Shown: positions 22,863-54,955 of the stretch, piece by piece
Layout: each line of letters starts with the position of its first letter
Position numbering within the stretch: the first letter of the stretch is position 1
Virus record (IMG/VR): IMGVR_UViG_3300047323_000545
Length of the DNA stretch: 64,000 nt
Direction: 5' to 3' (one strand)
Source: a virus
The notes under the pieces: model-generated
Told to the model about the DNA's origin: nothing
Databases searched by the model: none
Seen by the model: the letters and a program-made list of their open reading frames with translations, nothing else
Position numbers and translations under genes: made by a program

Positions 22863-22918
22863 CCCTGCACCTCCAGCCCTTCACGTCGGTGAAGAGCTGG
22901 TGGACATGGGAATGGGAG

Positions 22919-22948
22919 AGCCCCCCGGCGGTACCTGTCCGGGGGGCT
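22919..22948 (-). terminator. Hairpin terminator
   Basis: AGCCCCCCGG/CCGGGGGGCT. Confidence 0.6.
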
Positions 22949-22954
22949 TCTCGT

Positions 22955-23106
22955 GTCTCGTGAGACGTTTTAAGTAGTGGTCAGTCCCGCCAGACTCCAC
23001 CACACCCCGGCGCCATCCAGCCGACCTGATCGGTCAGTCACCGGGTGGCACGTTGAGGCACGCCTGCCAGCTGCAGTGCTTACGCCGCAGCCCTTATTCA
23101 CGAGAC
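22955..23106 (-). ncRNA. Candidate ~150-nt multi-stem RNA
   Basis: Closing stem GTCTCGTGA/TCACGAGAC, four internal hairpins, upstream promoter-like and downstream terminator-like elements. Confidence 0.5.
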
Positions 23107-50093: not shown

Positions 50094-52238
50094 TCAAGCG
50101 GCGGCGGGCAGCTCGCTGGTGAAACCCTGGTAGAAGGCGACGATGTCGGCCAGTGCCGTGGTGACTGGAGCGGGAGGGAGGGCCTTGACGATCTTTCGGC
50201 CGTAGGGCTTGCTGGCCAGACGCGGGTCCATGATCGCGACGACGCCGGAGTCGCCCACGCTGCGGATGAGGCGGCCGTACGCCTGCAGGAGCGTGAGGGT
50301 CATGGACGGCACAACCAGGTCGGCGAAGGCGTTGCCGCCCTGGCGCTCGATGGCCTCGCTGCGGGCCTTGTGGATGGGGTCGCTGGGGACGGCGAAGGGG
50401 AGCTTGTCGACGACGACGAGGCGGCAGGTGTTGCCGGGGAAGTCCATGCCGGTCATGAAGGAGCGCAGGCCGAACAGGACGGAGTGCTCGTCGGCGCGGA
50501 AGCGTTCGGCCATCTCCTTGACGCTCATGTCGCCGCCCTGGACGAAGGTGGCGTAGCCGTCGGCGCGCAGCTGGCCGCCGATGACGTTGTAGGCCTCGGT
50601 CATGGCCTTGCGGGAGGTGTAGAGGAGCAGAGCCCCTCCCCCGGCGGCCCGGACGAGTTCGAGGGTGGCGGCCGACACCCAGCTCTCCCACTCCCCCCGC
50701 GTGTCTCCTGCGGGGACCGGAACATCGGCGGCCGGGTGGAAGGTGAGGGCCTGGTGGCGGTAGTCGAAGGGGCTGCCGACGTCGAGGGTGGCGGCGGTGT
50801 CCTTCAGGCCGAGGCGGCGGGCGATGTAGTCGAAGCGGTGCGCTCCGGTGCCCGCGCTGAGGGTGGCCGACATCAGGACGGCCGGGTAGCGGCTCCACAG
50901 CTCCTCGCGGAGGTAGGAGCCGACGCCGATGGGCGCGGCCTTGATCATCCAGCGCTTGCCGACGGTCATGCGCTCGTTGCCGTACATCTCGGCCCAGCGG
51001 ACCATCTCGTTGGGGTCAGCGAGCATGACGGCCTTGATGTTGGCCAGGAAGTTGCGGCCGACGGTGATGATCCGATTGCGGATCGCCTCCTCCTTCTCCT
51101 GGTCGGAGGAGTCGGCGATCTTCCGCTTGACGACGCGCTGCCGCAGCACTTCGAGCGCCATCCACAGCGCCACGAACCGGTCGGCGTGGTCGCCGATGAA
51201 CTCAGCGTCGATGGCGCCGGTCTGGTCGTGCGCCAGCTGGTCGGCGATCGGCTGGGTCAGCGCGTCAATGGCGGTGATGACGTCCTGGTGGGCGTCGTAG
51301 CTCTTCCCGACGCGCTGCTCGTCCACGTCCTCGTGGACGGCGAGGAAACTCATGGCCTGGTCGGCCCACTTGAGCAGGCCACCCTGCTTGATGTCGAAAC
51401 CGAGGTGGTTGGTGGCCTGGTCCTCCAGCTCGTGGGCCTCGTCGATGATCAGGCCGTCGTAGTCACCGAGGAGGGCGTGGATCCGGGGGCCTTCGCCGTC
51501 GTCTCCGGCGGTCTCCCGGGCGATCTTGGTGTCGGTGAGCAGGACGGCCAGGTTGGTCGCGACGATGTCGGCGCCCATGGCGGCGTCCTTGTGCCGCAGG
51601 CCGAAGCACTGCTCGGCGAAGCCGCACTTCGAGCGACCGGGGCACTCGTCGCTGGAGGCGGACACCAGCGGCCACTCGCGGCGCTGATCGACTGGCGTGG
51701 TGACGTCGTCGCGGTCGCCGGTGTGGGAGAGCTGGCCGTTCTCGTCCGGCGCGATCTCCTCGCGCAGCGCCTGCAGGTTCTCGATCGCGGGGGTGTCGGC
51801 CATCTTGGCCAGGCAGATGAAGTTCCCGATGCCCTTGAGCGGAGCCCAGGTGAAGTCGATGCCGACCTCGGCCAGGACCTCCTCCAGCCAGGGGAGATCT
51901 TTCTTTGTGTACTGACTCAGGAGGGCGTTGGTCGCGGTGGCGACGACGAACCTCTTGCGGGGCACATCCGGACCCCCGGCGCGACTGGCGAGGATCGCGG
52001 CGACGAGGGCGGCGTAGGACTTGCCGGTGCCGGTGCCCGCCTCGGCGACCAGGTGCATGGGGTCGTGCTCAGTGAGGTCCTGGGTCAGCGTCAGCTCGGT
52101 GGCCTGCGCCAAGTGCTCCTGCTGCGGGCGGCGGCGGTAACCCGGGAGGTGCTTCGCGAACAGCTCTTGCAGGGACAAAAAGGTCGCAGGCGGAGCGGAC
52201 GGCATGGAGGGCCCCTTGAAGGTGGTGATGCTGCTCAT
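50094..52238 (-). CDS. DinG/YoaA-family helicase
   Basis: EAGTGTGKS, Fe-S Cys residues, IIDEAH, MSATL, QAYGRLIR. Confidence 0.93.
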   Translation of the reverse strand: MSSITTFKGPSMPSAPPATFLSLQELFAKHLPGYRRRPQQEHLAQATELTLTQDLTEHDPMHLVAEAGTGTGKSYAALVAAILASRAGGPDVPRKRFVVATATNALLSQYTKKDLPWLEEVLAEVGIDFTWAPLKGIGNFICLAKMADTPAIENLQALREEIAPDENGQLSHTGDRDDVTTPVDQRREWPLVSASSDECPGRSKCGFAEQCFGLRHKDAAMGADIVATNLAVLLTDTKIARETAGDDGEGPRIHALLGDYDGLIIDEAHELEDQATNHLGFDIKQGGLLKWADQAMSFLAVHEDVDEQRVGKSYDAHQDVITAIDALTQPIADQLAHDQTGAIDAEFIGDHADRFVALWMALEVLRQRVVKRKIADSSDQEKEEAIRNRIITVGRNFLANIKAVMLADPNEMVRWAEMYGNERMTVGKRWMIKAAPIGVGSYLREELWSRYPAVLMSATLSAGTGAHRFDYIARRLGLKDTAATLDVGSPFDYRHQALTFHPAADVPVPAGDTRGEWESWVSAATLELVRAAGGGALLLYTSRKAMTEAYNVIGGQLRADGYATFVQGGDMSVKEMAERFRADEHSVLFGLRSFMTGMDFPGNTCRLVVVDKLPFAVPSDPIHKARSEAIERQGGNAFADLVVPSMTLTLLQAYGRLIRSVGDSGVVAIMDPRLASKPYGRKIVKALPPAPVTTALADIVAFYQGFTSELPAAA

Positions 52239-52329
52239 GGCGGTGAGCAGGAAGGTCCTGGCGTGAGCGCGACGCTACACAGCGGCCCCGGGCGGAGTCG
52301 CGTTTTTGCTCCGGCGGATTTCCCGACAG

Positions 52330-52975
52330 GGGGTCAGCGGGGCGCGCCTGCAGGTTTCATGCGCAGGGTCCGTGCATCTGACACCACAGAAGTACTAGGG
52401 TGACCACGCGACCATCGTCGGTACCGCCCACCGAGGGTCGCGTCCGCTTCACCTGGCTCCAGAAACACCAACGGCCGCGTCGTCGGGATCCCCATCCCTC
52501 AGCGGCCGTCCGACAGAGACCTTGGCCGGTCATCTTCTGTCGGTGGGGCCAACAACCTGATATCCGAACAAGATCGCTACGACCATGGAGGTTGCTGGCA
52601 TGAGCCAGCCTACCCAAGAACAGCCCTCGGTGTACACGACCCGAGGCCATGACACGCCGCTGCAGGCCCGCGCCTGCAATCCGTTCAGGGGGCGGCTGTC
52701 CATTTCTGCCCTCGATGATGTTCAATGTCTTCCGGACGACCGGGCCCGCCAGCCTGGAGCCACCACCACAGACCACCCCCGGGCACAGGCGTGCCCGAAC
52801 CCGCCAAGGGGGCTGACGATGCACGGACTTCCTCAGGAAATGCTGGAGGGGCGCCCGGAGACCTCCATCTCCGTGACGCCCCTCTTCGCTTAGCGGCCCG
52901 AAGGCCGGTGGGAGCCTCTCCGCCAAGAGTGCGCTTCCCACAAGGGATTACCAGTCCCTCAGACGACGCGACCTA
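52330..52975 (-). ncRNA. Candidate large structured RNA or leader
   Basis: More than ten hairpins and long-range helices; cUUCGg tetraloop on the minus strand. Strand is tentative. Confidence 0.4.
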
Positions 52976-52999
52976 GTCGGTCAGACCATCGCCTCCACG

Positions 53000-54448
53000 G
53001 TGGTCGGGCCCTTGTCCCCAATGCCAATAGAGAGGGCACCTCCCGCCGTGCCACGCCAGTTTACGGGCCACGCACCCGTGCCGCACGCCAGCCAGGGCGA
53101 AAAACTCGCCAAAATTAGGGGAACCGCCGCCTCCGTCGGCGCGTCTCCACTTGATCTTCACCCTCAGCACTGGCTCCGCCGGTTCCCCGCACTCTCCCCG
53201 CGCATGACGGCCCTGATGGACCAGGGTGACGTCGGACTGCGCTACGGAACGACGGACTCCACCTCGTCCAAGAGGGCCAAGTCCCAGCACCGGCACGCCG
53301 TCATGTCGGCCGCCGCCGCCGGTGCCGTCCGCAGCGGCTGGACCAGCGACCAGTTCGCCGAGGCCATGATCGACTGGCCTTCGCGTCCCGGCGGCTTCGT
53401 GCGCGAGATGAGCCAGCCGTCGGCCGAGCGGTACCTGGACAAGATCTGGGAGCGGGCCCGCCACCACGTCAGCTTCACCAGCGTCGTCGGCTCCCGCGAG
53501 GACGCCGTGATCGAACTGGTCGCGCTGCGGGACACCATCGCCTCCGCCAACTGCTGGCGGGGCACGTCCGGTTCAACCGATCTCCGCGTTCTGATGGCCC
53601 ACTGGCACGCCGCGAAGAAGGCCGGTGGCCGGATGTACACCCTGGCCCACCGTGAGGCCGCAGAGGGCGCCGGGTGCACCGCCAACACCGCGTACCGGGC
53701 CTCCAAGCGCCTGGTCTCCGGGGGCTGGCTGAAGCTGGTCGAGGTGGGTACCGCTGACAAGGGATCGACCTGGTACCTGAAGGACGGTTCTCAGCAACGA
53801 CACACTCCCCGGGGGGCGCAGCCTGGGGGGGCACAGTCGAATGTATCGATGGTGAGAAACGGTGAGCTGGACGGTGCCGTCATCGAGCGCCTGATGAGCC
53901 TGGACGCCTTCGCCCACCGGGGCCTTGGAGCCTCTTCCCTGAAGATCCTGGCCGCCCTTCACCTGCGGGATCCCCAGTCCGTCGCGGAGCTGACCCAGAC
54001 CGCCATGGCCAGCTCCGCGACCGTCTACCGCAAGCTCAAGGTGCTGACCGAGCACGGTCTGGTCGAGCGCCAGGACGGCCTGTGGGCGCTCACTGAGACG
54101 GCCGCTGAGGCCCTCGCAGGGGCCTGGGAGGGCTGGGACACCGTGGCGGCCGAGGTCGGCACGTACGGGACCGCCTGGCGCCGTCAGCAGGCCCACAAGG
54201 ACCAGCGTGCGGTGTGGCACGGCATGGTCGTCCCCCGTATGCGCGAGCGCCGGATGCCCGACGTGGTTCCCGTACGGGGTGACGAGGTCGACCGGCGGTG
54301 CAGGTGGGGCAGCGAGGTCATCGACCGGGTGACCGGCGAGGTCATCGAGGACTTCGTCGTGGCGTCAGATGGCCGGTACCTGCTGCTCGTTGAGGACCTG
54401 GACTACGACGAGCTGGTCCGCCGCAACGCCCTCGCCTGCGCCGCCTGA
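53000..54448 (+). CDS. Plasmid-type replication initiator (Rep) with winged HTH domains; start uncertain
   Basis: WRGTSGSTDLRVL, REAAEGAG..NTAYRA and ArsR-like HTH; origin-like repeat within and after the gene. Confidence 0.6.
   Translation: MVGPLSPMPIERAPPAVPRQFTGHAPVPHASQGEKLAKIRGTAASVGASPLDLHPQHWLRRFPALSPRMTALMDQGDVGLRYGTTDSTSSKRAKSQHRHAVMSAAAAGAVRSGWTSDQFAEAMIDWPSRPGGFVREMSQPSAERYLDKIWERARHHVSFTSVVGSREDAVIELVALRDTIASANCWRGTSGSTDLRVLMAHWHAAKKAGGRMYTLAHREAAEGAGCTANTAYRASKRLVSGGWLKLVEVGTADKGSTWYLKDGSQQRHTPRGAQPGGAQSNVSMVRNGELDGAVIERLMSLDAFAHRGLGASSLKILAALHLRDPQSVAELTQTAMASSATVYRKLKVLTEHGLVERQDGLWALTETAAEALAGAWEGWDTVAAEVGTYGTAWRRQQAHKDQRAVWHGMVVPRMRERRMPDVVPVRGDEVDRRCRWGSEVIDRVTGEVIEDFVVASDGRYLLLVEDLDYDELVRRNALACAA
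53786..53860 (+). repeat. ~75-bp element inside rep (copy 1)
   Basis: 46-bp core at 53788-53833 is identical to the reverse complement of 54818-54863. Confidence 0.9.
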
Positions 54449-54541: not shown

Positions 54542-54883
54542 ATGCAGAGACCGATCGCCGCCACTCGGTGCCTGTCCTATGACGACGCCACCGCAGTCCT
54601 TCCAGACATACGCCAGAACCTCAAGTACCGGGGTCTCACCCGTGATCAGTACGGCCTGTGCGCTGAAGTCGGCCGGTACGGACGAGGCTGGGCTGTCTAT
54701 GTGGGATTCCAGCGCTCCGCTGACGTCCACGAGGCCACCCAAGCCATCACCGCCGACTACCCAGATCCCAAAGACAGGTCTCTGATCTGGGGTTTCTCAG
54801 CTTTGACACATTCGATATGCCCCCCCAGGCTGCGCCCCCCGGGGAGTGTGTCGTTGCTGAGAAACTGGGTACCTGCCCCCTGA
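54542..54883 (+). CDS. Hypothetical protein
   Basis: 113 aa; its 3' end runs through repeat copy 2. Confidence 0.35.
   Translation: MQRPIAATRCLSYDDATAVLPDIRQNLKYRGLTRDQYGLCAEVGRYGRGWAVYVGFQRSADVHEATQAITADYPDPKDRSLIWGFSALTHSICPPRLRPPGSVSLLRNWVPAP
54792..54865 (-). repeat. ~75-bp element (copy 2, inverted) bounded by GTTTCTCAGC/GCTGAGAAAC
   Basis: Direct alignment with copy 1. Confidence 0.9.
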
Positions 54884-54914: not shown

Positions 54915-54955
54915 CAGCAGGGGCCCTCGGGAGGTCATCCAGAGGGCCCCTGCTG
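54915..54955. terminator. Bidirectional hairpin terminator
   Basis: 14-bp inverted repeat between convergent units. Confidence 0.7.

Follow-up and report, generated by a model that had tools for sequence, protein, structure and literature searches.

A predicted antisense RNA over the rep leader and a candidate seed-pairing regulon in a Streptomyces phage-plasmid family

The window, a stretch of 64,000 nucleotides from IMG/VR virus record IMGVR_UViG_3300047323_000545, is part of a Streptomyces phage-plasmid belonging to a family of about 155 kb. Its gap region is 92% identical to that of the 154-kb circular pRLB1-9.1, which encodes an HK97 capsid, baseplate J, ParA, a ParB-family protein, DnaE, DnaB and WhiB, and homologues of its Rep-like protein lie mostly on contigs of 150-157 kb. 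The gap separates a dinG-like gene from a divergent rep-like gene, and the features of this junction are as follows.

50094-52238, minus strand: dinG-like helicase (Helicase_C_2, E 4e-39), which opens the lytic replication operon
52206-52277, minus strand: putative dinG promoter (-10 TAGCGT, 52277-52272) and short leader
52368-52401, plus strand: promoter-like site of the folded module (conserved CGTGC, -10 TAGGGT; predicted +1 at 52406)
52406-52650: clade-specific folded RNA module with stems 52406/52443, 52471/52509, 52510/52543, 52548/52599 and 52625/52646
52607-52640, minus strand: putative convergent promoter-like site (-10 TAGGCT, 52612-52607; predicted +1 at about 52600)
52651-52727, plus strand: predicted rep promoter region, with a GACAC box (WhiA-type) and a conserved TGATGTTSAATG core
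52801-52893, plus strand: Shine-Dalgarno (SD) sequence with CCGCCA, and short upstream ORF (ATG 52819, 24 aa)
52836-53052, minus strand: predicted antisense RNA of about 215 nt (z -4.3) over the rep leader, SD and start codon
Parts of its predicted fold, minus strand, from the 5' end: a hairpin covering the start and SD of rep; Hb (52993-52962); a hairpin with a UGGCGG loop (52925-52920); a GC hairpin at the end (52885-52846); then a U-rich tail
52979-53050, plus strand: rep ribosome-binding region with two alternative folds, an SD-sequestering hairpin or a hairpin at 52979-53010 that frees the SD
53058-53063, minus strand: putative antisense promoter -10, TA(A/G)A(C/A)T, inside the first rep codons (4-6)
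53048-54448, plus strand: rep-like tandem winged-helix protein (GTG start after the SD AGAGAGGG; HTH Pfam matches)
53788-53860 and 54792-54863: 73-bp inverted duplication (92% identity, E 1e-24), inside and after rep

The likely start of dinG is 52205, 3' of an AAGGGG SD, and genes for a DnaC-like protein, DnaB, WhiB and DnaE follow downstream. Its leader carries CCGCCA at 52243-52238, and a -10 with one to three CCGCCA copies is present in all 19 leaders extracted. On the other side of the gap, tandem winged helices, a weak PHROG match to a replication initiator (E 1e-4) and a distant plasmid homologue that adjoins parA suggest that the Rep-like protein is a replication initiator; a Foldseek search with it gave no match at E<=0.001, only generic winged helices. 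In Streptomyces sp. NPDC021080 dinG is split by about 1 kb (L010:2942 and 1963), possibly by an intein or intron. The early region of the window further encodes a 2'-5' RNA ligase/LigT-domain protein (19719-17815, minus strand) and a RecA homologue (35509-34331, minus strand).

The comparison set comprised 20 distinct loci, all with the divergent dinG/rep arrangement. The gap is long (about 1 kb) in 11 of these relatives and short (about 0.65 kb) in 9, and the short-gap loci are those that lack the left 300 nt or so (52345-52645). Lineage-specific insertions of 90-190 bp were seen between the dinG promoter and the module at approximately L048:2950-3130, L053:2600-2720 and L075:2540-2640; that in L053 holds a plus-strand terminator-like hairpin and that in L075 a direct repeat. 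Comparison of the Rep and DinG trees indicates that Rep has reassorted between lineages (L004, L013/L048), yet the core of the leader RNA can still be aligned, a pattern suggestive of replicon swapping. In distant Rep homologues on chromosomes and linear plasmids the leader is of another kind and has no CCGCCA repeats. Among the distant, mostly chromosomal ones (L014-L042), a conserved leader with hairpins and short repeats lies about 250 bp upstream, and is possibly another RNA control element.

The initial annotation described 52330-52975 as a single nested fold of about 600 nt, forming a large noncoding RNA, a switchable leader or a single-strand origin. The stems it listed all lie at the positions given, and the 646 nt fold better than dinucleotide shuffles (z -3.3 on the plus and -4.3 on the minus strand; 0 of 20 shuffles as good). 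The base pairing is thus real, whereas the single fold is not, as the excess stability is confined to two blocks, 52406-52650 (mean z -3.2/-3.3 in 11 relatives) and 52834-53050 (mean z -4.3 on both strands in 20 relatives), and 52646-52833 folds no better than shuffles (z about 0). The two long-range helices said to enclose the stems are poorly kept. The first (52454/52754) keeps its full pairing (-16.5 kcal/mol) in the window and the 92% relative alone, reaching -11.8 in one relative and -5 to -8 in eight others with a nearly invariant 5' arm; the second (52368/52818) pairs at full strength in 2 of 11, partially in 3 and weakly in 6, and its 5' arm, at a fixed distance upstream of the TAGGGT -10, looks like a promoter element. 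Relatives do not conserve the TGCAGGC stem, and the minus-strand UUCG loop occurs in the window only, while the structured element extends past 52975 to about 53063.

The gap lacks a conserved protein: the ORF from ATG 52725 ranges from 3 to 119 aa and is frameshifted among the 20 relatives, and a Pfam search of three gap ORFs gave no match. Leaderless ORFs from either module start were rejected, being frameshifted among relatives. Searches of Rfam at both gathering and E-value thresholds returned no family, including GOLLD, ROOL, group I/II introns and ribozymes, with a sub-threshold Actinomyces-1 hit only. Resemblances to a T-box antiterminator and a group I intron were set aside, as Rfam lends them no support; the bases that look like a T-box serve also as a -10. 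Comparison with the relatives shows the gap to be a composite of three parts: an antisense block, the rep promoter with its upstream ORF, and a clade-specific module.

In the antisense block, T, A, A and T of the putative -10 are invariant in 20/20 relatives while the encoded Rep residues vary, and a fixed gap of 6 nt separates it from the GCACG of the first hairpin. Hairpin Hb and the GC hairpin contain 40 minus-only against 2 plus-only G-U cells, strong evidence for the strand and not proof, as the minus strand is G-richer, which inflates such counts, and the relatives share ancestry. Covariation was observed among the relatives: in the minus-strand alignment of the block 96.9% of cells are paired, with 7 compensatory changes (0 of 500 shuffles equal), and GC-to-AU swaps occurred in separate lineages. 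Each antisense RNA would carry one to four UGG(C/U)GG sites, at least one of them largely unpaired in 20/20. The tail of the terminal GC hairpin is short (3-5 U, weak in about three relatives) and fails a strict terminator scan. The conserved -10, the strand-specific structure and the end hairpin together point to an RNA of about 215 nt antisense to the rep leader, SD and start. That the block is a structured RNA we consider highly probable, and that it is made as an antisense transcript, quite probable. The initial placement of a structured RNA at the junction of plasmid and lytic replication is supported by the block z-scores, the strand-specific G-U pairs, the covariation and the phage-plasmid context.

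On the opposite strand the GACAC box, a WhiA motif (PMC10243135), stands 65+-1 or 52-54 bp upstream of the TGATGTTSAATG core in 20/20 relatives. Between these spacings lies roughly one turn of the helix, as would fit an activator that binds DNA, and the WhiA/WhiB-type assignment is by motif match and phased spacing. The core is followed downstream by CCGCCA, a stretch rich in C and A, and a CCGCCA-fused SD. An SD with a start codon at up to 10 nt is found in 19/20 relatives, and the ORF behind it varies from 4 to 32 aa without sequence conservation, so probably the act of translation, not the peptide, matters. The ORF ends at 52893, about 155 nt before the rep start at 53048, and is only 4 aa long in several relatives; with its stop so far upstream, direct coupling to rep is impossible. 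The rep-leader strand has three to six copies of CCGCC(A/G), the opposite one none.

At the rep ribosome site the wobble bias is reversed (48 plus-only against 8 minus-only G-U cells), and opposite biases on the two strands of the same bases are what a sense-antisense pair would be expected to leave. Two folds alternate there among relatives; covariation for the open fold (hairpin 52979-53010) was not above shuffles (76/500). The rep-sense leader strand has no U-tailed terminator of the pT181/pIP501 type, the U-rich tail being on the minus strand only.

These strand-specific pairs also bear on whether the hairpins act as DNA, forming a single-strand or priming origin, or as an RNA primer like that of non-RepA mycobacteriophage origins. 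The location beside rep, a turn of the cumulative GC skew near 52300 and the RNA-based prophage origins known in actinophages (PMC7157519) speak for such a role. However, the skew turns where the coding strand changes, the conserved G-U pairs fit an RNA, the left module is dispensable in 9 relatives, and rep and the sequence behind it contain a better origin candidate, and so such an origin, the initially proposed single-strand one included, is improbable. This candidate is the 73-bp inverted duplication, which from its sequence may be a Rep-binding origin or operator. One of its copies encodes the disordered linker of Rep, and a 41-bp hairpin (54915-54955) lies 3' of it.

A search with model R2, built from the 5' half of the antisense RNA, led to a further element.

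22913-23106, minus strand: second RNA, with a separate promoter-like site (site region from 23142) and a UGGCGGG loop at 22992-22986

Model R2 matched it weakly, at the same place in four genomes; in 150 further genomes the model gave weak matches only, and none in the 50 kb of pZL12 examined. The layout of the second RNA comprises a promoter-like pair TTGCC and CACGAT, a closing stem, a shared hairpin, the UGGCGGG loop and a terminal hairpin/terminator. The shared hairpin, GACCG-N-AGGUCG, also occurs in the antisense RNA, is rearranged in one homologue and is possibly a protein-loading site. Across 10 homologues (z -2.7 to -5.6) the UGGCGGG loop is invariant in 10/10 within variable stems, and Rfam holds no credible match. 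Because no rep leader lies opposite, the loop could act only in trans, and this together with its own promoter-like site and terminator indicates that UGGCGG is the RNA strand. The separate promoter-like sites of both RNAs suggest that they are primary transcripts.

The complement of this loop is widespread in the family. CCGCCA stands within 40 nt before the SD at 34/193, 31/143, 32/214 and 15/70 predicted starts in four family genomes versus 6/312 in the host, that is 15-22% versus 1.9% in the host chromosome (P 5e-8 to 9e-12). In pRLB1-9.1 it lies on the sense strand within 70 nt of 53 of 185 annotated starts, a count that includes ATG overlaps; the tagged genes are mostly early and middle ones, and the complement was found only 4 times. 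The control replicons phiC31 (0/26) and pZL12 (2/59) have no enrichment. Galactica, an imperfect control, has 9/70 CCGCCA starts, several of them in inverted repeats that also contain the complement, and the RNA model has no match there. CCACCA is likewise enriched before SD sites in the long-gap clade. CCGCCA is sometimes found in the loop of an SD-holding hairpin, in the window and in the pRLB1-9.1, cg35 and MH60 replicons. CCGCCA as a mimic of a tRNA 3' end for RNase P was unsupported, most sites having no 5' partner strand.

A seed duplex of 6-7 bp would be worth -9.9 to -13.2 kcal/mol, and complementarity beyond it is not common to most targets. With complementarity this short, and with about 1.5 copies of the hexamer per kb of host DNA, specificity is a problem, and a regulon built on trans pairing with CCGCCA seems to us an even bet. 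The tag might instead be bound by a phage or host RNA-binding protein with a CsrA-like logic; the CCGCCA loops of the rep leader would then be its sites, the UGGCGG RNAs would not be trans effectors, and the antisense RNA may act on rep in cis only. Dozens of sites with just 6-7 nt in common, mostly unpaired, would suit a protein, as would the CCGCCA before some Galactica genes, and a 6-nt seed is short for an RNA without a chaperone. Protein binding leaves unexplained why the exact complement is the invariant loop of the 23-kb RNA in 10/10 homologues, and no candidate protein was identified, so we regard it as unlikely, if the most serious competitor to RNA pairing. Between 78013 and 114337 of pRLB1-9.1 (L076, L077), a repeated GCAAC..GTTGC precedes a TAGAGT -10 ahead of small early genes; they are probably bound by a protein repressor, which makes control by RNA alone unlikely.

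The third part of the gap, the folded module, has 82% column identity among the 11 relatives that carry it. Its distribution requires one change on the DinG tree, in one clade (100/100), and does not follow the Rep tree. The module was absent from the cg35 plasmid and from the phage collection, and was not found in 400 sampled Streptomyces genomes, where a single match was a chance one in coding sequence. It lies between two convergent promoter-like sites, each setting the predicted +1 at the foot of a helix. The plus-strand site (52368-52401) keeps identical spacing around a variable spacer in 11/11, and TAGGGT/TAGGTT is also present at other promoter-like sites of the family; the minus-strand site (52607-52640) has an invariant -10 and an ungapped, variable spacer in 11/11. 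The predicted minus-strand +1, about 52600, coincides with the base of a 12-bp helix whose pairs are all formed on the minus strand alone, with the help of G-U. The consensus fold (alifold) is -85.5 on the minus versus -80.3 on the plus strand, and wobble events are mixed, with 5-6 favouring minus and 3 plus. Energy, the 12-bp helix, purine-rich internal loops and a k-turn slightly favour the minus strand as the one transcribed; a plus-strand RNA or a sense-antisense pair is possible.

The left module also bears on a further reading, in which one long plus-strand leader, from 52406 to rep, switches by long-range pairing (e.g. 52436 with 52966) and thereby chooses between Rep and lytic replication. 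The promoter-like site before 52406, the conservation of both ACGCGACC copies and the two folds at the rep ribosome-binding site are consistent with it. Against this, the long helices have decayed in most relatives, the middle part is unstructured and promoter-like, the left half is missing from 9/20, and the module tracks DinG, encoded on the other strand, and not Rep. The same promoter-like sites, unstructured part, decayed helices and losses speak against the initial proposal of a single large noncoding RNA, and the long leader is improbable.

On its minus strand the module forms a k-turn-like hairpin, canonical in 6/11 relatives, which resembles the Actinomyces-1 motif (RF02928) in its C:G at -1b:-1n and, in two relatives, its C:C at 3b:3n, the Actinomyces-1 k-turn being the reference for these positions (PMC8191799). 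The score of 31.4 bits is below the cut-off of 39.1, and the k-turn hairpin alone aligns. The same strand masks a CCGCYRAG site (52505-52496) with an extended match to a UGGCGG-type loop. The site varies only C/U and A/G; these changes break the k-turn in five relatives yet keep it compatible with a UUGGCGG loop, which points to a decoy or to an upstream leader for dinG gated by the small RNA, a role we put forward tentatively, at somewhat less than an even chance. A search for long duplexes between the module and the two RNAs, run without a shuffle control, found no one site common to all six genomes.

Drawing on the observed conservation, strand-specific structure, motif enrichment and second RNA, we infer the following mechanism. 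The rep mRNA would start near 52735 from a WhiA-type promoter and carry the short upstream ORF with its CCGCCA-tagged SD, followed by the rep ribosome site with its open and closed folds. A counter-promoter in rep codons 4-6 would give rise to the antisense RNA of about 215 nt, ending at the GC hairpin. Kissing contacts between its UGGCGG loops and the CCGCCA loops in the rep leader would grow into a duplex that covers the SD and start codon of rep, so that Rep, and with it copy number, is kept in check. The UGGCGG loop of both RNAs would also pair in trans with the CCGCCA that adjoins the SD at dinG, at the upstream ORF and at dozens of other early or middle genes. The lytic programme would most likely be held down in the plasmid state, repression being about twice as probable as activation. 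In one clade, an extra folded RNA of about 200-240 nt on the dinG side would hide the extended loop match on its minus strand. Antisense control of rep in cis combined with seed pairing of two RNAs to CCGCCA boxes is, on balance, the account we find slightly preferable. The widest form of the proposal holds that phage-plasmid RNAs sharing a 6-7-nt seed loop and a hairpin motif form a genome-wide, microRNA-like translational regulon, in which the rep countertranscript would also regulate dozens of lytic mRNAs according to its dose and the dinG-side decoy would tune the switch in one clade; this is a speculative extension, perhaps one chance in three.

Small folded phage-plasmid RNAs that use short unpaired stretches to pair with repeated boxes, one of them at the ribosome site of a short ORF, and so silence genes of replication or lysis are known from P1 and P7 (C4 RNA) and N15 (CA RNA), and the C4 and CI RNAs are processed by RNase P from the transcript they control and cause termination. 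In P4, CI RNA pairs with seqA/seqC and blocks the replication genes (PMC4825925). As in these systems, a short loop here is complementary to repeated boxes on phage mRNAs, one at the ribosome-binding site of a short ORF, the likeness being in complementarity only. Unlike C4, the RNAs described here have no Rfam C4 match at the gathering score or at E<=10; unlike CI and C4, there are two of them with their own promoter-like sites, 30-50 candidate boxes lie genome-wide instead of 2-4 local ones, and one RNA is also the predicted countertranscript of rep.

That last feature recalls ColIb-P9 Inc, IncB RNAI and R1 CopA, in which a countertranscript of the rep leader comes with a short leader ORF and an occludable rep ribosome-binding site, an arrangement like the one predicted here. 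The target loop of I-complex antisense replicons is rUUGGCG (PMC10724649), and the sequences of their kissing pair, CGCCAA/UUGGCG, recur in the kissing pair predicted for this phage-plasmid family. However, the polarity is reversed in 20/20 relatives, with UUGGCG on the antisense RNA, and the leader ORF stop neither overlaps nor abuts the rep start. The predicted RNA is also long, at about 215 nt, and has up to 4 seed sites and many seed targets outside the replicon, and no activating pseudoknot was found. With no Rfam match, reversed polarity, an uncoupled ORF and more targets, the gap RNA is a member of neither the CI/C4 group nor the I-complex replicons. Extrachromosomal prophages of actinophages are known, some of which need a noncoding RNA (PMC7157519); this family differs from pZL12 and the cluster A mycobacteriophages in having a Rep-like gene with a predicted RNA antisense to its leader. 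Antisense copy control in Streptomyces phage-plasmids, or the CCGCCA motif, was not described in the literature searched, the coverage of which was incomplete.

Cultured carriers of the family exist (RLB1-9, MH60 and cg35), and the RNA/box pair could yield a Streptomyces replicon and an orthogonal translation switch. RNA immunity factors so far described in phage-plasmids target a few nearby sites, and the antisense RNAs of plasmids a single mRNA. If the proposed mechanism is true, one RNA would do both, reaching about a fifth of the genes of a 155-kb phage through a 6-nt seed, which would be a new scale of RNA control over the choice between lysis and the plasmid state, in a host group not known to have Hfq. 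RNA rather than protein may thus tie plasmid copy control to the lytic programme.
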